Positions 8,011-20,100 of a stretch of 48,949 bases of DNA are shown here, one piece after another. The notes beneath the pieces are model-generated. The model was not told the origin of the DNA. It did no database searches and worked only from the letters and a program-made list of their open reading frames with translations. Origin of the DNA: Escherichia phage BEU51. The DNA lies in the sequence record OM632672.1. The stretch is one strand, 5' to 3'. Position numbers and translations under genes: made by a program. How positions within the stretch are numbered: the first letter of the stretch is position 1; each line of letters begins with the position of its first letter.

Positions 8011-9225
8011 ATGCAAACTTTTACTGCCCGTGAATATCTGAAAATTGACATTGCTAATAACTATGGTCTGGATAAAGAAGACTGGGATGACCGTATTGCA
8101 TGGTTCGATAAGAATGAGAACAACCTACTGAACCTTGTAAGAGAAGCTGAAGAACCTGCCCTGTTCTATGCTGGTGTTAAAGCATGGATGGACGTTAAGG
8201 AAGGTAAGCCAATTGGTTATCCTGTTGCACTGGATGCTACATCATCTGGTCTACAGATTCTGGCTTGTCTGACTGGTGACCGTAGAGCTGCTGAACTATG
8301 TAACGTTGTTAACTATCGTGATGAAAGTGGCAAAGTTAAACGTCGTGATGCTTATACAGTTATCTACAACAAGATGCTGAACACTCTTGGTAAAGGTGCT
8401 CGTATCAAACGTAATGACTGTAAACAAGCAATCATGACTGCTCTGTATGGTTCAGAAGCTAAACCAAAGGAAGTATTTGGTGAAGGCATTATGCTCAACG
8501 TATTTGAAAGCACAATGAATGTGGAAGCACCTGCTGTATGGGAACTAAATAAATTCTGGTTACAGTGTGGTAATCCAGAGGCTTTCGTATATCACTGGGT
8601 AATGCCAGACGGCTTTAACGTATATATCAAAGTAATGGTAAATGAAGTGGAGACTGTCCACTTCTTAGATAAGCCATATGACTGTGTTCGTAAAGTACAA
8701 GGTACTGAAGAGAAGACTCGTATGCTATCTGCCAATACCACTCACTCTATTGATGGCCTAGTAGTACGTGAGTTGGTTCGTCGTTGTGACTATGACAAGA
8801 ACCAAATTGAATACATCAAGGCTCTTTGCAATGGTGAAGCTGAATATAAGGCTTCTGAAAAGAACTATGGCAAAGCAATGGAACTGTGGGGCTACTATGA
8901 GAAGACAGGATTCCTGACTGCTCGTATCTTTGATTATCTGGATTCTGAAACTATTAAATTAGTAAATACTCAGGACATTCTAGACCTGATTGAATCCATG
9001 CCTAAGAAGCCATTCCATGTACTCACTGTACACGACTGCTTCCGTTGCCTGCCTAACTATGGCAATGACATTCGTCGTCAGTACAACAACCTGTTAGCTA
9101 CTATTGCTAAAGGTGACTTACTATCTTTCATTATGAGCCAGGTTCTAGGCCAAGAAGTTACTATTGGCAAACTAGACCCGACTCTATGGGAAGATGTATT
9201 AGAAACCGAATACGCTCTATCTTAA
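8011..9225 (+). CDS. phage RNA polymerase II large subunit (T7-like catalytic part)
   Basis: PVALDATSSGLQILA resembles T7 RNAP motif A (DGSCSGIQH) and LTVHDCF resembles motif C (HDSF); ATG at 8011 with GAGGAA upstream gives 404 aa. Confidence 0.85.
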   Translation: MQTFTAREYLKIDIANNYGLDKEDWDDRIAWFDKNENNLLNLVREAEEPALFYAGVKAWMDVKEGKPIGYPVALDATSSGLQILACLTGDRRAAELCNVVNYRDESGKVKRRDAYTVIYNKMLNTLGKGARIKRNDCKQAIMTALYGSEAKPKEVFGEGIMLNVFESTMNVEAPAVWELNKFWLQCGNPEAFVYHWVMPDGFNVYIKVMVNEVETVHFLDKPYDCVRKVQGTEEKTRMLSANTTHSIDGLVVRELVRRCDYDKNQIEYIKALCNGEAEYKASEKNYGKAMELWGYYEKTGFLTARIFDYLDSETIKLVNTQDILDLIESMPKKPFHVLTVHDCFRCLPNYGNDIRRQYNNLLATIAKGDLLSFIMSQVLGQEVTIGKLDPTLWEDVLETEYALS

Positions 9226-9230
9226 TAACT

Positions 9231-9265
9231 AAGGCTATCCCTTCGGGGGTAGCCTTTATTTTTTT
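9231..9265 (+). terminator. rho-independent terminator
   Basis: AAGGCTATCCC-TTCG-GGGGTAGCCTT perfect 11-bp stem followed by TATTTTTTT. Confidence 0.8.
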
Positions 9266-9309
9266 AGTAAATCATAATGGATAGGCATTTAACCTATGAG
9301 GAAATTAAA

Positions 9310-10149
9310 ATGCCTGTTCTTAAAGTGATGTTCCATAAAGACACCAACGTAGCTACTGTACTGGATGCCAGTGGTAGCCTTAGTGATGGTTCCGTTGAGG
9401 TGGGTACTTTCCATCATCCTGATGAAACCTATCCTGATAGTGTAACTATCTATCATGGTGTACGTGACCTGCTGTATAAACGCAGTGCTAAAGACCCATC
9501 TCAAACTGCTTCTTACCCAAATAACATTATCAATATGCAAGTTATCAGTATTGATATGAAGGCAACTCCTCGCCTGATTTTGGGTACTGCATTACCTCGT
9601 GTAATCTCTACTATTGAAGGCAAAGATGTAACCTGGCATGTAGATGTTGCTGGTGGTAAAGCACCATTGACTTACAAGTGGCAGTTTAAAGCTAATACTG
9701 TAGGTGCTGCTTTCGCTGATATTGATTCCGGAGAGAATCCTACAGCTAAAACTGCAACTCTTATTAACCATGCAGTAACTGCTGAATCTGCTGGTACTTA
9801 TAAAGTCATCGTTACTGATGCTAACGGTACTACTATCGAGAGTTCTTCTCTGCTGGTTGTAGGAGTTCAGGAACCACCTGAAGTAGCTTCTATTGTTGCT
9901 TATCCAAGTCCACTGGCTCTATCAGTAGCTGATGATATTACTGATGGTAAAACAGTTAAATTTTCTTCCCTGCCTGCTGGCTCTTTGATTGGTACTCTGT
10001 CCATTAAGACCCAGCCTGACAGTGGTAAAGCTACTGCTGAGATTAGTGGTAATGTACTGACAGTTAAACCTGTAGCCGCAGGTGACACTACTGTAGTGGT
10101 CACCAACGGAACCAAGGAAGTAACTGTTACGGTTAATGTTACAGAATAA
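9310..10149 (+). CDS. Ig-like (Big_2-type) domain protein
   Basis: Two beta-rich segments typical of bacterial Ig-like domains (TYKVIVTDANGTTIESSSLLVV; GDTTVVVTNGTKEVTVTVNVTE); ATG at 9310 with GAGGAA RBS. Confidence 0.5.
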   Translation: MPVLKVMFHKDTNVATVLDASGSLSDGSVEVGTFHHPDETYPDSVTIYHGVRDLLYKRSAKDPSQTASYPNNIINMQVISIDMKATPRLILGTALPRVISTIEGKDVTWHVDVAGGKAPLTYKWQFKANTVGAAFADIDSGENPTAKTATLINHAVTAESAGTYKVIVTDANGTTIESSSLLVVGVQEPPEVASIVAYPSPLALSVADDITDGKTVKFSSLPAGSLIGTLSIKTQPDSGKATAEISGNVLTVKPVAAGDTTVVVTNGTKEVTVTVNVTE

Positions 10150-10170
10150 TGTGATTGTTTTTATGAATGT

Positions 10171-10194
10171 AGCCCTCCTTGTGGGGGCTTTTTA
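10171..10194 (+). terminator. rho-independent terminator
   Basis: AGCCCTC-CTTGT-GGGGGCT hairpin followed by TTTTT. Confidence 0.65.
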
Positions 10195-10218
10195 GTATCT
10201 ATAGGAGAGTAAATAATT

Positions 10219-10533
10219 ATGGCTAATAAGAACCGTCTTCGTGTATGGCATATCCCTCAAGTACCCGGCAAAGCCTTCTATGTTGAAGTAGATTCAGTAG
10301 AAGAAGGTGTACGTATCATTGATATACTAGCCAACTATGACCTATTCCAGTATGAGAACAATATCAAAGGTGATTACTGCAATGTCTCTGGTTTACAGAT
10401 GTATGATGAACATATCACTGATGATGAAATGGAAGAGATGGGTCTGACTGACCGTTGGGTAGACTGGTACTATGAAGATGACCAGAGCTTTTTTGATAAC
10501 CCGAAAGAGTATTTGAATAATCTCAAGAAGTAA
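10219..10533 (+). CDS. hypothetical acidic protein (104 aa)
   Basis: ORF from track, GGAGAG RBS. Confidence 0.6.
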   Translation: MANKNRLRVWHIPQVPGKAFYVEVDSVEEGVRIIDILANYDLFQYENNIKGDYCNVSGLQMYDEHITDDEMEEMGLTDRWVDWYYEDDQSFFDNPKEYLNNLKK

Positions 10534-10573
10534 TTTCTTGGGGTTAATGACCCTTATTAATTCCTTATCCTTT

Positions 10574-10596
10574 GCCCTCCTATGGAGGGCTTTTTT
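10574..10596 (+). terminator. rho-independent terminator
   Basis: GCCCTC-CTATG-GAGGGC hairpin followed by TTTTTT. Confidence 0.7.
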
Positions 10597-10607
10597 ACGG
10601 AGTACAA

Positions 10608-10814
10608 ATGTTTAAGTTTTTAGACCTTATCTGGGCAGTCATTTTGCTGGTTGCTACAGGCTTTGTATATGGCTTCTTGCTCCCATCAATGATGTCTGCT
10701 TTAGACAGCATCATTGTTGTTATGGGCTTGATAGTCTGTATTGTGTGGCCTCTTATCGTAGGCCGTATCGTTTATCTTACAGTTAAGAAAAGGATGAGAA
10801 GAAAACATGTATAA
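10608..10814 (+). CDS. small membrane protein (two predicted TM helices)
   Basis: ATG at 10608 downstream of the terminator; the track start at 10572 would read through the hairpin; two hydrophobic stretches and a basic C-terminus. Confidence 0.55.
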   Translation: MFKFLDLIWAVILLVATGFVYGFLLPSMMSALDSIIVVMGLIVCIVWPLIVGRIVYLTVKKRMRRKHV

Positions 10815-11643
10815 GTACATTGCAGTAGCAATTGCAGGGCTAATCATTGCTCTAAGTTTAACGAGCTGCTATGACCGAGTTGAACCAGGTAATGTAGGTA
10901 TTATCGTTAACCGTCTCGGTGAAGATAAAGGCGTGGAAAATGAGGTTAAAGGTGTAGGCCGTTACTGGCTCACTTGGAATGAAGAACTTTATACATTCCC
11001 AACCTTTAAGCAGATGAAGACCTATGATGGTCTGTTCTACTTCCAACTGTCTGATGGTACTCAGATAGGCCACCAGATGGCTATCAGCTATAAAGTGAAC
11101 CCTACTAAGGTAACTAATATCTTCCAGACGTATCGTAAGGGAGTTAATGAAATTACCGAGCAGGATTTACGCCAACGTATTGCTGATGTACTTAACAGAC
11201 AGGGTAACCTGATTAACACTGATACATTTATTGATGGTGGTAAATCTAAGCTACTAGATAGTGTCACTGACACAATCCGTAAAGAGATGGAACCAGTGGG
11301 GATTGATATTATTGCTATCTCCTGGATTGGTGCTCCTGAATACCCTGATAACGTTAAACGTGCCATTAATGCCAAAGTAGAAGCTACTCAGAAAACTCTG
11401 CAACGTGAGCAAGAGATTCAACAACGTGTAGCTGAAGCTAATATGGAACGTGAACAAGCTAAGGGTGTAGCTGATGCTATTCTGATTAAAGCTAAAGCAG
11501 AGGCTGATGCTATTCGTTTACGTGGTGAAGCACTCACCGAGAATCCAAATGTAATGCAACTGGAAGCTATTAATAAGTGGAATGGTACATTACCTACCAC
11601 AATGATTCCTGGGGCTACTACACCTTTCGTTAATGTGAAATAA
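10807..11643 (+). CDS. SPFH/band-7 (HflC/prohibitin-like) domain lipoprotein
   Basis: N-terminal signal with lipobox LTSC; VEPGNVGIIVNRLG start and Ala/Glu-rich C-terminus (KAKAEADAIRLRGEALTENPNVMQLEAINKW) typical of SPFH proteins. Confidence 0.7.
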   Translation: MYKYIAVAIAGLIIALSLTSCYDRVEPGNVGIIVNRLGEDKGVENEVKGVGRYWLTWNEELYTFPTFKQMKTYDGLFYFQLSDGTQIGHQMAISYKVNPTKVTNIFQTYRKGVNEITEQDLRQRIADVLNRQGNLINTDTFIDGGKSKLLDSVTDTIRKEMEPVGIDIIAISWIGAPEYPDNVKRAINAKVEATQKTLQREQEIQQRVAEANMEREQAKGVADAILIKAKAEADAIRLRGEALTENPNVMQLEAINKWNGTLPTTMIPGATTPFVNVK

Positions 11644-11650
11644 CTAAGCA

Positions 11651-11679
11651 AACCCACCATTACGGTGGGTTTATTTTTT
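11651..11679 (+). terminator. rho-independent terminator
   Basis: AACCCACC-ATTAC-GGTGGGTT hairpin followed by ATTTTTT. Confidence 0.75.
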
Positions 11680-11705
11680 GAAGTTATCTAACACTGGGTA
11701 TTCCT

Positions 11706-11930
11706 ATGAAAGTAAATGTTTTACGTCGTAAGAAAGTTCCTTTCTTTCAAATCAATTGTGGTTCATGTTTTCAACACGATGATGACTACTATATGAAGTG
11801 TAGTTATCAATCTAAAGAACACTTCTATGGTGTGAATTTACAAACAGGGCATCTGTTCACATTTGATAATAATGACTTTGTTTATCCTGTGACTTTAGAA
11901 GCATGTATTCCTGACCCACTTAATAAATAG
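11706..11930 (+). CDS. hypothetical Cys-containing protein (74 aa)
   Basis: ORF from track. Confidence 0.5.
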   Translation: MKVNVLRRKKVPFFQINCGSCFQHDDDYYMKCSYQSKEHFYGVNLQTGHLFTFDNNDFVYPVTLEACIPDPLNK

Positions 11931-11931
11931 T

Positions 11932-12288
11932 ATGGCTCAAGAAAAGAATCGTCGTCAGACACTTATCGAACGTATTCAGGCCAGAATCAAATTACAGGAC
12001 TTAGGCTATACCGTTAATGGTCAGCCTAGCCTCTGTCACATCTGGACTGGTTCACATTCAGGTAATGGACGCGGTGGGCAATATGGCAGGATTTCCGTGA
12101 ATGGAGTTACCTCTGCAACTCACATTATTGCCTATACCCATTATCATGGTTATATCCCCAATAAGATGCAAGTAGACCATCTCTGTAATAATCGTCTGTG
12201 CTGTAACCCTGAACATCTTGAATTGGTTACTCACCAAGAGAACCAGAGAAGAAGGGCTAAGCGTTCTAAATCTAAAGGAAATAAATAA
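11932..12288 (+). CDS. HNH homing-type endonuclease
   Basis: VDHLCNNRLCCNPEHLELVTHQEN is a classic HNH motif (H..N...CC.NP.HL....N). Confidence 0.8.
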   Translation: MAQEKNRRQTLIERIQARIKLQDLGYTVNGQPSLCHIWTGSHSGNGRGGQYGRISVNGVTSATHIIAYTHYHGYIPNKMQVDHLCNNRLCCNPEHLELVTHQENQRRRAKRSKSKGNK

Positions 12289-12459
12289 ATGATTAAAAAA
12301 CTTATTTGTAAACTTATTGCAGCAATCTTAATTAGTATTATTGGTATTGCATGGGTAATTTCTACTCCAGATAACGTTATGCAACAAATTTATTATGCTG
12401 TATATACATCAACCTCTTTTGTTTGGGTTTATGTAATGTACCGTATTTGTAGCGACTAA
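12289..12459 (+). CDS. small hydrophobic protein (56 aa, below track cutoff)
   Basis: ATG overlaps the HNH stop (TAAATG); two hydrophobic segments. Confidence 0.35.
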   Translation: MIKKLICKLIAAILISIIGIAWVISTPDNVMQQIYYAVYTSTSFVWVYVMYRICSD

Positions 12460-12488
12460 TACTTAATATAGCTTAACTGGAGAGTAAA

Positions 12489-13547
12489 ATGGCTAGTATT
12501 GATTCTATTGCCGTATGTAATCCACGGCAGGTACGTAAATTTGTTGAACACTGTATCCGTTCAGGATTGGTTCCATTTATCACTTCATCTCCTGGTATGG
12601 GTAAATCTGCAATTGTTCATCAGATTGCAGAAGACTTTGGCCTGAAACTGATTGACCATCGTCTGTCTACTTCAGCACCAGAAGACCTGTCAGGTCTGCC
12701 TCGTTTTAAAGAAAATGGTCGTGCTGAATTTGCTCCATTTGACGAGCTATTCCCACTGGAAGGGGATACTGTACCTGAAGGATTTAATGGCTGGCTTCTC
12801 TTTCTCGATGAGTTTAACTCTGCTCGTAAAGAGATTCAGGCTGCTGCTTATAAATTGGTACTCGACCGTATGACTGGTCAGAAGAAGCTACATCCTTATG
12901 TAGCTATCGTATGTGCTGGTAACAAAGCAACTGACCGTGCCATTACTAATAACCTGTCTACAGCTATGCAATCACGTCTTATTCATCTGGAAATGGAGAC
13001 TGATTTTGATGTCTTTATGGAAGATGTAGCTATCCCTAACAAATGGGATGAGCGTGTAATTGCATTCCTGAATGCTAACCCAAATAAACTGAATGATTTT
13101 GAACCAGACCATCAAGAGAAGACTTTCTGTTGTTCTCGTACATGGGAGTTCGTTAACAAGATTGTTTCCATTCTCCCACCGGGACCGATTGATAGTGAAA
13201 TGACTCTGCTATTAGCAGGCACTATCACCTCTGGTGTAGCAACATCATTCGTCCAGTTTACTCAGGTCTATAGCAACATGGTGTCTTTGAATGAGATTTT
13301 GGATAATCCTAAGAAAGCTCGTATGCCTGAAGACAATAACCTGTTGTGGGCTGTAGTCACTTCACTGATTAACAATACTGACGAAGATAATCATTCGAAA
13401 ATCTTTGATTACGTTGAACGTATGCCATTTACGTTCAAGGTTTTGTACTACCGTTCCGTAGGTAGTCTGGTTCCAGCTTTGGTTAAATTACCGAACTGGC
13501 GTGTTGCTGCAATCACATTATCTAAATACGTTCATGGTTCCAATTAA
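12489..13547 (+). CDS. AAA+ ATPase, MoxR-like
   Basis: Walker A SSPGMGKSA and Walker B LLFLDEFN; followed by a VWA partner gene as in MoxR-VWA pairs. Confidence 0.75.
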   Translation: MASIDSIAVCNPRQVRKFVEHCIRSGLVPFITSSPGMGKSAIVHQIAEDFGLKLIDHRLSTSAPEDLSGLPRFKENGRAEFAPFDELFPLEGDTVPEGFNGWLLFLDEFNSARKEIQAAAYKLVLDRMTGQKKLHPYVAIVCAGNKATDRAITNNLSTAMQSRLIHLEMETDFDVFMEDVAIPNKWDERVIAFLNANPNKLNDFEPDHQEKTFCCSRTWEFVNKIVSILPPGPIDSEMTLLLAGTITSGVATSFVQFTQVYSNMVSLNEILDNPKKARMPEDNNLLWAVVTSLINNTDEDNHSKIFDYVERMPFTFKVLYYRSVGSLVPALVKLPNWRVAAITLSKYVHGSN

Positions 13548-18009: not shown

Positions 18010-20100
18010 GTGAAACGAAATTATCTCGCCATTATTGCCCTGTCAGTAGACAGTCGTAACCTCACCTTATGGCAACCAGATGGTTCTACTATGGTCATCC
18101 CCCAAGGGGATGCCCGTGTACCACGTATTGTTGCTGAAGCAAAAGAAAAGAATCTTACCCCAGGTAAGATTATCGAAGTGGATGTCACTATCGAAGCTCA
18201 GATTCGTCAGGAGTTTCTGGACGCTGAACGTGATACAGGTGGCTTTGTTAAATTCTTCCGTATTACTAAGAAGAGGCTACAAGAGTTCTTCTTAGGGGAA
18301 GAGGAAGAACAAGTCCCTTATGTATCACCTGTAGAGTTAGGTGCTAAACCCACTGCTTTCAATGCTTTTATTGCTAATGCTGTAGGCAAAACTCTTGCTG
18401 TACAACATGCATCATTAAAAGCACCTGAACCAGAAATGACAGTTACTCATGAGCGTTTTTACGGTAACTATGCTGTATGGATTACAGATGTAGACCCACG
18501 GAATCATCGTATTGAGGTTATTCATGTTATCCGTGAAATCTCAGGAAGAACCAGTGAATATGTCAATAACCTGCTGGCTCAACCAACCCCATTCAAAGTA
18601 TTTGATTGGCTCACAGAGACGCAGGCTAAAGAGTTTGTAAGACGTCTGAATAACACTCAGGGTGTTATCTCTGTCTATAACAAACTGGAAGACGGTATTC
18701 CTGCTAAGGTTGCTGTAAAGGCCACAAAGCCAACCAATAAGGAAAAGCTGGAAGCTGCATCAACTAAGCTGAAAGCTATGGGTGCTGTCGCTACTGATGC
18801 TTATGAGTTTCATACTGACTTGAATGAGAATGAAGAGACTATTGTAGCTGTAGTGAATGATAAGGTGGTTCCTGATGTTCAGAACCTACACCGCCACATC
18901 CGTCAATCTGCAAACCTGAAAGACTATAAAGGCTTTACTAAGTTCCTTGAACGTCTGTCTACTGTAATTGATAAACGTCGTCACTCTGTTGAAGACCTGA
19001 TGAAGTTTATGGAAAAAGGTGACCTGCCAATTGCAGATGATGGCTCCATTGTTATCTTCAAACGTCTGGAAAGCAAAGACAATCCTGAACATCTCAAAGA
19101 CGTAATGGATGATGTATTTGTTGATTGCCATTCTAGGAAGATTGAGCAATGCGTTGGTATGCGTGTAATGGTTAAAGAAAACCTTGTAGACCAGAACCGT
19201 CGTAAAGACTGTTCTCATGGTTTGCACGTAGCTTCTCTGCAATACATTCGTAATTTCTCAGGCAACGTAACCATTATTGGTAAAGTTGCTCCAGAGGATG
19301 TATTTGCAGTACCAGAATACGATGTTACTAAGATGCGTGTATCTGCTTATCACATCATTACCAAGCTACCTGATGCTATTCGTGACCATGTTAATAATGG
19401 CAATCCAATCTCCACCATTGAGGGTGGTACGGAAATCCTGAACATGGTTCTCAGTGGTAATCACCCTGAACCTTCCCGTCAGGTACTGGTTGGTGGTCAT
19501 TATGGAACCAATCTGACTTATTCAGAACTCACCCGTAATTATCTGGATGATGAGGAAGACATCGTTATTCCAGATGAACCAGTAATTAAGAAAACTGCCT
19601 TGAATATGGAAGAGAGCTTTACGGCAACTAATCCTAAAGCTGAACCAGTGAAGGCAACGGATGTTAAACCTATTAAGAAGACTAAGATGGAAATTCTTAA
19701 AGACCTTTGGAACCAGTTCCTGAAAGCAGAGACTTCTAATGAAGCTATTACACTGGCTGATGAAATCATTGCTGCTAAGGGCAAATGTAAGAAGTCATGG
19801 GCTTCTTTAGGCTTCAGTGGTGACATGGTTCAGAAACTGATTGATGCTCGTGCTAATAAACCTAAGCCAGAAAAAGTAGTCAAACAGGATAAAACTGTTG
19901 CACCTAAGAAAACTACAATCACTCGTAGTCGGAATGCTGATGTTATTCGTAGCTATCTGAATGACAAAGGTATGTCTGATTACTGTAAAGCTCATGCCAT
20001 TCACGATGTGAAACGTGCTGCTAAGAAATCTTATGCTGCACTGGGTCTGACTCCTGAAGAATGCAGCCAAATTGATAAACTGAAGCATCATTTGAAGTAA
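18010..20100 (+). CDS. large hypothetical protein (696 aa)
   Basis: Track ORF starting at GTG with GGAGAA upstream; no motif recognised by eye. Confidence 0.6.
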   Translation: MKRNYLAIIALSVDSRNLTLWQPDGSTMVIPQGDARVPRIVAEAKEKNLTPGKIIEVDVTIEAQIRQEFLDAERDTGGFVKFFRITKKRLQEFFLGEEEEQVPYVSPVELGAKPTAFNAFIANAVGKTLAVQHASLKAPEPEMTVTHERFYGNYAVWITDVDPRNHRIEVIHVIREISGRTSEYVNNLLAQPTPFKVFDWLTETQAKEFVRRLNNTQGVISVYNKLEDGIPAKVAVKATKPTNKEKLEAASTKLKAMGAVATDAYEFHTDLNENEETIVAVVNDKVVPDVQNLHRHIRQSANLKDYKGFTKFLERLSTVIDKRRHSVEDLMKFMEKGDLPIADDGSIVIFKRLESKDNPEHLKDVMDDVFVDCHSRKIEQCVGMRVMVKENLVDQNRRKDCSHGLHVASLQYIRNFSGNVTIIGKVAPEDVFAVPEYDVTKMRVSAYHIITKLPDAIRDHVNNGNPISTIEGGTEILNMVLSGNHPEPSRQVLVGGHYGTNLTYSELTRNYLDDEEDIVIPDEPVIKKTALNMEESFTATNPKAEPVKATDVKPIKKTKMEILKDLWNQFLKAETSNEAITLADEIIAAKGKCKKSWASLGFSGDMVQKLIDARANKPKPEKVVKQDKTVAPKKTTITRSRNADVIRSYLNDKGMSDYCKAHAIHDVKRAAKKSYAALGLTPEECSQIDKLKHHLK

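Follow-up and report, generated by a model that had tools for sequence, protein, structure and literature searches.

A gp19-gp20 cassette of N4-type coliphage encoding a small two-helix membrane protein and a predicted SPFH lipoprotein

We analysed a stretch of 48,949 nucleotides from Escherichia phage BEU51 (OM632672.1), called the window hereafter, and in particular two adjoining genes at positions 10608 to 11643, which a preliminary description made from the sequence alone had presented as a phage-encoded SPFH/band-7 lipoprotein preceded by a small membrane protein. The DNA from 10200 to 12500 is 100% identical to that of Escherichia phages BEU5, BEU13, BEU14, BEU42 and BEU44, 99% identical to that of PMBT57, AlfredRasser and VEc25, and 98.7% identical over 2.3 kb to that of coliphage N4. 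This upholds the phage origin of the pair, and by its sequence the locus is the known gp19-gp20 cassette of N4-type coliphage (Enquatrovirus). The genes, their order (gp18-gp19-gp20-gp21-HNH) and their spacing are those of N4 (EF056009 / NC_008720; ABK54388, ABK54389), and each window protein corresponds to its N4 counterpart with one substitution, M29V in gp19 and R110H in gp20 (99.6% identical). There is thus no difference of substance between the two, the window coming from a BEU/PMBT57-like isolate, and the numbering of N4 is used here: gp18 (similar to P22 gp17), gp19, gp20, gp21 and gp22 (HNH endonuclease). Public records already contain the genes together with their SPFH and lipoprotein assignments, and as a sequence feature the cassette is annotated and no surprise; the preliminary description had missed that both genes were already annotated as N4 gp19 and gp20. 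The N4 gp20 record was first noted as 'similar to Yersinia pestis protein' and bears the RefSeq name 'lipoprotein', and labels in other records include 'putative SPFH domain protein', 'SPFH domain-containing protein', 'predicted HflC' and 'serine protease'. We regard the gene and domain identity of the pair as practically certain. The features of the locus are listed below, with the basis of each in parentheses.

10574-10596, forward strand: upstream hairpin (10574-10590) with a 7-bp GC-rich stem and a 3-nt loop, plus a T6 run (folding free energy -13.6 kcal/mol, z -3.1)
10599-10602, forward strand: GGAG Shine-Dalgarno sequence of gp19, 5 nt before the ATG (sequence reading)
10608-10814, forward strand: gp19 homologue, 68 amino acids, two transmembrane (TM) helices, ATG at 10608 and TAA at 10814 (open reading frame, ORF, reading; phrog_1130; family alignment)
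10807-11643, forward strand: gp20 homologue, 278-amino-acid SPFH/Band_7 (prohibitin-like) predicted lipoprotein (Pfam, PHROGs, AlphaFold2 or AF2, Foldseek)
10807-10869, forward strand: predicted lipoprotein signal peptide of gp20, residues 1-21 (ORF reading, conservation)
10858-10869, forward strand: lipobox LTSC, residues 18-21, with Cys21 as the predicted lipidated N-terminus and Tyr at +2 (conservation)
10876-11436, forward strand: SPFH domain proper, residues 24-210, starting 3 residues past the Cys predicted to be lipidated (Pfam envelope, AF2 secondary structure, conserved blocks)
11347-11541, forward strand: long Ala/Glu-rich helix, residues 181-245, predicted equivalent of the coiled-coil wall (CC1) of SPFH cages (AF2 model, composition)
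11542-11640, forward strand: conserved C-terminal tail, residues 246-278, NP..L.AI.KW.G.LP...PF..K, candidate oligomer cap (invariant residues; predicted local distance difference test score, pLDDT, of 50-60)
11650-11679, forward strand: downstream hairpin (11650-11672) with a 9-bp stem, plus a T run (folding free energy -14.3 kcal/mol, z -4.2)

The small gene and the SPFH gene are inherited together. A first-stage sample of 87 sequences comprised the window and 86 loci from GenBank and IMG/VR; wherever the SPFH protein was at least 60% identical, an ORF of 55-80 amino acids with two TM helices abutted or overlapped the SPFH start in essentially every locus. A hidden Markov model (HMM) of the gp19 family, built from the positional small ORFs adjoining SPFH genes, matched exactly once in 90 of 95 sequences, and the match was the gene immediately before the SPFH gene every time (39 distinct sequences). 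The tblastn search with gp19 returned 22 phage records and under-reports the family relative to the HMM. In an alignment of 17 representatives (A2), identity to gp19 goes down to 16%, P26, S30 and G40 are invariant, and the motif YG.L.P.LIS.KD.I.V..G spans the predicted periplasmic loop. The family reaches from N4-like phages to lambdoid and Shiga toxin (Stx) prophages, P2-like prophages and phage-plasmids; further members were found in Vequintavirinae phage BIS47 (where a 54-amino-acid gene is intercalated), in Pseudomonas phage Ostro and, with the small gene unannotated, in the P2-like prophage of E. coli UTI89 and in phage-plasmids of about 95 kb. The five sequences that have no gp19 homologue belong to the most distant phages, and four of them have another small TM protein beside the SPFH gene. 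Phage K has the MbpV/MbpS pair, with overlapping stop and start and no homology to gp19; in phiCbK, the SPFH gene overlaps the gene of a protein with three TM helices, which takes the place of gp19; and in Clew-1, the SPFH gene is preceded by one for a 72-amino-acid protein with a single, C-terminal TM helix. We consider it quite probable that gp19 and gp20 form a functional pair. A similar arrangement was seen in Kuttervirus FEC14 (NC_049427.1, locus 2809-3027), where an unannotated ORF of 72 amino acids with two TM helices and a strongly basic loop lies between a gp17-like gene and an SPFH lipoprotein gene; the order equals that of N4 gp18-gp19-gp20, but the small ORF is non-homologous to gp19 and its predicted topology is opposite.

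In one cluster the two products are fused. The 347-amino-acid protein P0074 consists of a gp19-family protein joined in frame to its own SPFH lipoprotein (...FFREKTRKLINEK followed by TLISAAIIFGSLCLTGCDRVEPG...), and the cluster comprises six distinct sequences of 347, 348 or 363 amino acids (P0074, P0122, P0123 and P0125-P0127) with three junction types, on at least 17 contigs from NCBI, ENA and Logan assemblies. The loci concerned are L099 3001-4044 (E. coli contig JAPPYW010000018.1), L054 3000-3023 and L093 2410-2480. The fused alleles arise because the length of an A-run changes at the gene junction, being A7 in the separate genes and A6 (or A9) in the fused ones. A programmed -1 frameshift at the A_AAA_AAC run of the prophage alleles was considered and rejected, as the SPFH gene is read in the +1 frame with respect to the small ORF and the fused alleles differ simply in A-run length (A7 to A6 or A9). 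The topology of the fusions fits the model for gp19, with the C-terminus of the hairpin in the cytoplasm and the signal segment then crossing outward. The fusions are modest independent evidence that both products work together in one membrane. A second A-run just upstream shifts the frame of the basic tail of the small protein between alleles (...REKTRKLINEKNVD versus ...RKKIQEID), and this variation may be phase-variation-like slippage or neutral drift.

Within the cassette, the stop of gp19 and the start of gp20 overlap by 8 nt (ATGTATAA), in accordance with the overlap described previously. This suggests translational coupling, so gp19 and gp20 are probably made together. The 68-residue product of gp19 (10608-10814) has hydrophobic segments at approximately residues 7-25 and 35-57, which bears out the double-TM protein of the preliminary description, and matches phrog_1130 of PHROGs ('membrane protein') with E=2.7e-20. 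Because of the positive-inside rule and the charges of the loop (net -1) and of the C-terminal tail TVKKRMRRKHV (net +6), gp19 is predicted to be a hairpin with both termini inside (N-in/C-in) and a loop of about 8-9 residues directed to the periplasm. This loop carries the conserved motif P26-x3-S30-x2-D, which is complemented by G40. The 17 family members gave nothing consistent in Pfam or among solved PDB structures. We rejected gp19 as an NfeD protein, since NfeD (PF01957) matched neither gp19 (Pfam, E<=0.1) nor any of the 17 family members (E<=1); at 68 amino acids, gp19 is also too short to hold an NfeD domain. A holin assignment was rejected likewise: the best Pfam holin match of gp19 had E=0.044 and 14 bits versus a cut-off of 28, Phage_holin_3_6 was matched by 2 of the 17 members far below threshold, such sub-threshold matches are typical of hydrophobic noise, and the neighbours are gp18, gp21 and the HNH gene, not an endolysin or spanin gene.

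The SPFH claim for gp20, for which the preliminary description had proposed a profile search, held: gp20 matched Pfam Band_7 (PF01145) with E=1.7e-23 and 84 bits, versus a gathering cut-off of 23.6, over residues 24-210 and profile positions 2-175 of 176. In PHROGs, gp20 falls into phrog_200 ('lipoprotein', E=6.8e-95). An alignment of 46 homologues revealed the invariant blocks RVEPG, FPTFKQMK, FQTYRKGV and FIDGGK in the SPFH domain. The AF2 monomer model based on this alignment (pLDDT 79) is made up of an N-terminal helix, the SPFH beta/alpha core, a single helix of 65 residues (181-245), a short helix and a low-confidence tail. The Ala/Glu-rich C-terminus that had been pointed out earlier lies in the long helix: Ala and Glu account for 35% of residues 195-245 and for 11% elsewhere. 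Foldseek aligned the model over 250-300 columns, with probability 1.0 and E=1e-13 to 1e-8, to solved SPFH-type structures, namely human prohibitin, HflK/C (7vhq and 7wi3; alone and with FtsH), erlin, stomatin, QmcA-YbbJ (8z5g), flotillin and the major vault protein. The solved form of all these targets is a large ring or cage whose wall is built by the long helix and whose cap is the C-terminus. In its predicted structure gp20 has the superfamily core, the long helix and the C-terminal segment, and it holds all cage modules in the same order at approximately the length of prohibitin.

The N-terminal sequence of gp20 is MYKYIAVAIAGLIIALSLTSC, and its predicted signal peptide, MYKYIAVAIAGLIIALSLTS followed by C, ends in the lipobox L-T-S-C. 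The segment MYK-YIAVAIAGLIIALS-LTSC has the charged n-region, the hydrophobic h-region and the lipobox pattern [LVI][ASTVI][GAS]C of a lipoprotein signal, from which lipidation is predicted. L18, G/S20 and C21 are kept in at least 90% of the 46 homologues and the lipobox Cys is also present in distant phage homologues, in agreement with the LTSC lipobox at residues 18-21 noticed previously.

When the profile of the 46 homologues was compared with solved structures, the matches were weak, with the coiled-coil region of prohibitin-2 first (E=1.6e-4) and HflK and HflC next (about 3e-3). The HflC equivalog of NCBIfam, TIGR01932, gave 19.6 bits versus a cut-off of 134.4, and no match of gp20 to the HflK model was reported in the NCBIfam search. 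HflK/C proteins have a TM anchor and two paralogues; here we found a lipobox signal, a single SPFH gene and a 68-amino-acid neighbour. Of the label 'HflC/prohibitin-like' given in the preliminary description, the prohibitin part thus stands as the best profile and fold match, whereas orthology to HflC or HflK was rejected on the failed TIGR01932 score, the single gene instead of a K/C pair, and the predicted lipid anchor instead of a TM helix. We also rejected the label 'serine protease', which homologues carry in GenBank/UniRef (e.g., OLB145, vB_Eco_AL25, Stx2_95 and ST11-VIM1phi8.3), as Pfam shows Band_7 alone and the single 'protease' PHROG match spans just the coiled coil at 199-259; the name probably goes back to 'protease modulator HflC' or to NfeD proteins of the ClpP type. 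In Pseudomonas phages of the Clew-1/TL type (Clew-1 locus 1446-1552), the annotated SPFH ORF begins at about family residue 40, without signal peptide and lipobox, and the tblastn similarity starts about 50 nt before the annotated ATG; the gene may be frameshifted or truncated or have another start.

A hairpin with a T run is present on either side of the pair, which confirms the flanking terminators of the preliminary description; none of 200 shuffles folded as well as either hairpin. The upstream one looks like an intrinsic terminator after gp18, and the downstream one is an intrinsic-terminator-like site after gp20. The upstream hairpin and its T run end 11 nt before the ATG of gp19, and the Shine-Dalgarno sequence sits inside this gap. 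Because there is no room for a promoter between this terminator and gp19, the pair is not a self-contained promoter-to-terminator unit, and its mRNA must result from read-through of the hairpin or start upstream of or within it. A consensus for N4 middle promoters was not found in the searchable literature. Such sites are abundant in the region, with 10 terminator-like sites found in 9000-13000 versus 2.2 expected. A hairpin and T run follow each short cassette (9231-9266, 10171-10200, 10574-10596 and 11650-11679), GC-rich and 10-50 nt before the next start codon, and the ends of these terminators, in which A follows the T run (TTTTTTA), may double as initiation regions for phage RNA polymerase II (RNAPII).

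Homologues of gp20 were found in 702 phage records of very different lineages. By host, these include 275 records of Staphylococcus phages, 76 of Pseudomonas, 50 of Erwinia and 45 of Klebsiella phages. Identity to gp20 is 62-66% in Stx-converting and temperate enterobacterial phages, 47% in Vequintavirinae and 25-30% in Caulobacter phiCbK and crAss-like phages. Giant viruses, too, commonly have SPFH folds. Of 5,426 complete E. coli genomes, 536 (about 10%) carry the prophage version of the cassette, and 199 copies are on plasmids. Gamaleyavirus IME11, which belongs to the subfamily of N4, keeps the RNAPII genes, the decoration protein gene and the gp18 homologue in the same order; homologues of gp19 and gp20 are absent from its whole genome and other small genes are at their place. 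The cassette is therefore dispensable for an N4-like life style, and accessory.

The neighbourhoods differ between lineages. In the lambdoid/Stx phage Stx2_95, the cassette lies upstream of xis and int on the same strand; in a P2-like prophage, it lies in the early operon upstream of replication gene A; and in the E. coli phage-plasmids of about 95 kb, it lies among tRNA genes about 0.7 kb upstream of the gene for Tad2 (anti-Thoeris; L093 3959-4534, L099 4729-5304). In N4 and Kuttervirus it directly follows the P22 gp17 homologue, a placement after this gene for which we cite PMC3220722. In the window this gene is the following.

10219-10533, forward strand: N4 gp18, the P22 gp17 homologue (Pfam PF17420, E=2.4e-56; 64% identical to P22 gene 17)

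According to PMC4837284, which cites Susskind and Botstein 1978, gp17 of P22 frees its phage from exclusion by Fels-1 and is thus a counter-exclusion factor. The gp18 family extends over 325 phage records, with Kuttervirus, Gamaleyavirus and Bacillus phages among them, and is labelled 'superinfection exclusion' everywhere. The cassette is an accessory module that moves between unrelated phage lineages and stands among early or middle lytic, counter-defence or anti-exclusion genes; this gene order suggests that it is expressed in lytic growth and kept in accessory, conflict-related neighbourhoods. Membership of the pair in a defence system was rejected, as PADLOC defence models matched none of gp18, gp19 and gp20 at E<=0.1. 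Downstream of the prophage SPFH gene Pmorf0222 of Pasteurella multocida (primer supplement, PMC9872710) we noticed GCCACCACTACGGTGGC TTTTTT, which is close to the N4 gp20 terminator ACCCACCATTACGGTGGGT TTATTTTTT; this resemblance hints that the cassette may have moved together with its terminator.

Considering known SPFH systems, the best solved match to gp20 was to the prohibitins (PHB1/PHB2, cd03401; 8rrh_B, E=1.1e-13 over 285 columns). They share with gp20 a length of 272-299 amino acids and the sequence of N-terminal anchor, SPFH domain, long helix and C-terminal tail, and they face the compartment equivalent to the periplasm, as is predicted for gp20. However, identity is 15-17%, and gp20 has a predicted lipid anchor instead of a TM helix, a single gene instead of PHB1 and PHB2, and a dedicated partner with two TM helices. 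E. coli HflK/HflC-FtsH shares with gp20 the SPFH fold and the predicted periplasmic side, with full-length fold alignments to HflK and HflC in FtsH complexes at E of about 1e-12 to 1e-13; unlike them, gp20 has neither a TM helix nor a K/C heterodimer and fails the HflC equivalog. The SPFH-NfeD operons (QmcA-YbbJ, FloA-NfeD and PH1511-PH1510) resemble the present locus in that an SPFH gene adjoins a small membrane-protein gene, and an adjacent co-directional gene of this type was found here in the 90 of 95 sequences. The cage of QmcA-YbbJ incorporates the partner at a 1:1 ratio (PMC13086221; PDB 8z5g). The differences are that the partner here is a hairpin of two TM helices in which the NfeD OB-fold was not found, that the SPFH protein is predicted to face the periplasm and not the cytoplasm, and that the system is phage-borne.

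The Kayvirus pair MbpV/MbpS (Staphylococcus phage K ORF29/ORF28) also resembles gp19-gp20, with a small membrane protein encoded just upstream, an overlap and bracketing terminators. MbpS is about 25-30% identical to gp20, but has a TM anchor and no clear lipobox, and MbpV is non-homologous to gp19, with one TM helix and a charged coiled-coil tail; furthermore, the pair belongs to phages of a Gram-positive host and is beside lysis genes, unlike the N4 cassette. It has been described with speculation alone on its function, and MbpV was said to resemble holins (PMC7150955). Why a phage should encode an SPFH lipoprotein 'remains unclear' according to a 2026 paper on an N4-like phage (PMC13239085).

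The explanation that we find best, and to which we give about an even chance, is that gp19 and gp20 make up a periplasm-facing SPFH assembly on the inner membrane. Both proteins would be co-produced by translational coupling. Exported and lipidated at Cys21, gp20 would have its SPFH body directly on the periplasm-facing membrane surface and would oligomerise via the long helix and the C-terminal tail into a ring or cage that fences a membrane patch, like solved SPFH proteins. The gp19 hairpins would be the membrane-embedded partner that a lipid-anchored SPFH protein is missing, and their conserved loop would contact SPFH1; gp19 would thus play the role that YbbJ has for QmcA, though unrelated to it, and the pair would be a functional analogue of SPFH-NfeD systems and not a member. 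In lytic growth, the cassette might condition the envelope of the infected cell by shutting out other phages or gaining an advantage over them at the inner membrane, or by protecting the membrane during the long latent period of N4. We infer lipidation, inner-membrane location, cage formation and gp19-gp20 contact, and the biological role of the cassette is speculative, with any specific role having at best a low probability. Our best guess at the order of roles is envelope conditioning (inter-phage competition or membrane protection), followed by FtsH modulation, outer-membrane action without gp19 and lysis timing.

A location of gp20 at the inner membrane, facing the periplasm, is the reading that we prefer and is plausible because most prophage homologues have Asp at +2 and natural fusions tether the protein to its partner with two TM helices. 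For Enterobacteria, the canonical residue of Lol avoidance and retention in the inner membrane is Asp at +2, and it is present in most prophage and phage-plasmid homologues, as LTGC-DR in 71 of 87 SPFH matches and additionally in LVGC-DR and LSGC-DR variants. A series of observations weighs against this location and the assembly built on it. The window copy and the other N4-type copies do not have Asp at +2, as they contain an inserted Tyr (C-Y-D or C-Y-E); the standard +2 rule would predict outer-membrane sorting for them, away from gp19, which leaves their location ambiguous. In favour of retention, Seydel et al. (1999) reportedly found that a reporter lipoprotein can also be retained by aromatic residues at +2. 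According to the Lol rules, the Arg at +3 of the prophage forms is not a classic strong retention context. The Pasteurella prophage protein PM0222 ('HflK/C-like'), a putative homologue of gp20 with cd03401 over residues 22-245 and a gp20-like layout, was found in outer-membrane vesicles (PMC9872710). The AF2 model covers a single chain, and we judge a gp20 cage on the inner membrane to be slightly favoured. The pairing also has its exceptions: the crAss-like phage cr128 has a protein with three TM helices downstream, not upstream, of the SPFH gene, and Fifi318 has no TM neighbour at its SPFH gene. The fusions, in turn, could be non-functional slippage alleles. Finally, the searchable literature yielded no functional study of N4 gp19/gp20, nor one of any SPFH protein from a phage.

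These points give some room to gp20 being an outer-membrane or surface lipoprotein that is sorted by Lol and either masks a receptor or is shed in vesicles, with gp19 as a mere co-transcribed neighbour. The phage exclusion lipoproteins Llp and Cor, which would be the models for receptor masking, are outer-membrane proteins. The residues at +2 are in line with this, since neither the Tyr of N4-type copies nor the Glu, Gly or Asn found in other lytic-phage homologues is a classic retention residue, as is the recovery of PM0222 from vesicles (PMC9872710). We nevertheless consider this explanation improbable. The strict co-inheritance in 90 of 95 sequences, down to 16% identity of the partner, the start/stop overlaps and the fusions by which SPFH is tied to the hairpin speak for both proteins acting jointly in a single membrane. 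In most prophage homologues, the Asp at +2 is predictive of retention at the inner membrane, and PM0222 is a putative homologue of gp20. It is similarly doubtful that gp20 mimics HflK/C, i.e., that it captures or modulates host FtsH on the periplasmic face, alone or mixed with HflK/C, and so alters the turnover of phage or host substrates. HflK/C is the sole periplasm-facing SPFH complex of E. coli and thus on the side predicted for gp20, the fold alignments to HflK and HflC and the weak HflK, HflC and TIGR01932 profile matches agree with this proposal, and the early operons of temperate lambdoid and P2-like phages, in which control of FtsH might be relevant, contain homologues. However, the HflC threshold was missed by a wide gap, TM helix and K/C paralogues are lacking, the best match was prohibitin, and the cassette is mostly in strictly lytic phages that have no CII-type switch (N4-like phages, Vequintavirinae, Kuttervirus and Kayvirus).

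A role in lysis timing, with gp19 as a holin- or antiholin-like hairpin that is restrained or organised by gp20 and feeds the delayed lysis of N4, is very unlikely. It would account for a small protein with two TM helices and a very basic tail, for the weak Pfam holin matches and for the position of Kayvirus MbpV/MbpS next to lysK and holA, MbpV having been likened to holins (PMC7150955); in FEC14, an Rz-like spanin gene is about 2 kb upstream. Against it stand the scores of these matches, far under threshold, and the N4-type neighbours, which are gp18, a Zn-finger-like ORF and an HNH endonuclease gene with no endolysin or spanin gene there. Furthermore, IME11, which is without gp19 and gp20, has a holin-endolysin-spanin cassette annotated far from the region, and the prophage cassettes are in early and not in lysis operons. 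A further development of the preferred explanation, the periplasm-facing assembly, is that of a distinct phage-borne two-component SPFH system, in which a non-NfeD hairpin and a lipid-anchored prohibitin-like cage would be traded as an inter-phage weapon that blocks the entry of competitor genomes or as a shield against abortive-infection effectors; we put this forward tentatively, as a possibility that is more likely wrong.

SPFH proteins build cages that fence membrane patches, and no phage-encoded member with a demonstrated function was found in the searchable literature. With respect to the literature searched, the new elements are the systematic conservation of the gp19 family and of its loop motif, the fusion alleles, the Asp/Tyr dichotomy at +2, the absence from Gamaleyavirus and the failed HflC and NfeD tests. 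The cassette is compact, with two genes in about 1 kb, is present in tractable phages (N4, or the BASEL phage AlfredRasser) and can be dispensed with, as a sister genus shows. It is thus a convenient entry to what viruses use SPFH scaffolds for and to whether a non-NfeD hairpin can partner an SPFH protein. If the reading as a distinct two-component SPFH system is true, such a system would be present in hundreds of phages and in about 10% of complete E. coli genomes.

Of the two genes that come next after the cassette, gp21 (11706-11930) is a Cys/His-rich ORF of 74 amino acids with a weak zf-UBP match (E=1e-3), and gp22 (11932-12288) encodes a free-standing HNH endonuclease of 118 amino acids (PF13392, E=8.6e-20). 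In Moo19, which is without gp21, the HNH gene comes directly after the SPFH gene. The window as a whole is not collinear with N4. The gene rIIA (841 amino acids, phrog_2979) is at 1-2526 and fused straight to the left-end sequence of N4, position 1 of which corresponds approximately to window position 2552. At the canonical rIIA site of the window, rIIB (18010-20100) comes directly after gp32, with no rIIA between them. The GenBank records of BEU5, BEU13, BEU14, BEU42 and BEU44 start with rIIA at base 1 and are collinear with neither N4 nor the window, and the displacement of rIIA looks like an artefact of assembly or record ordering, not biology.

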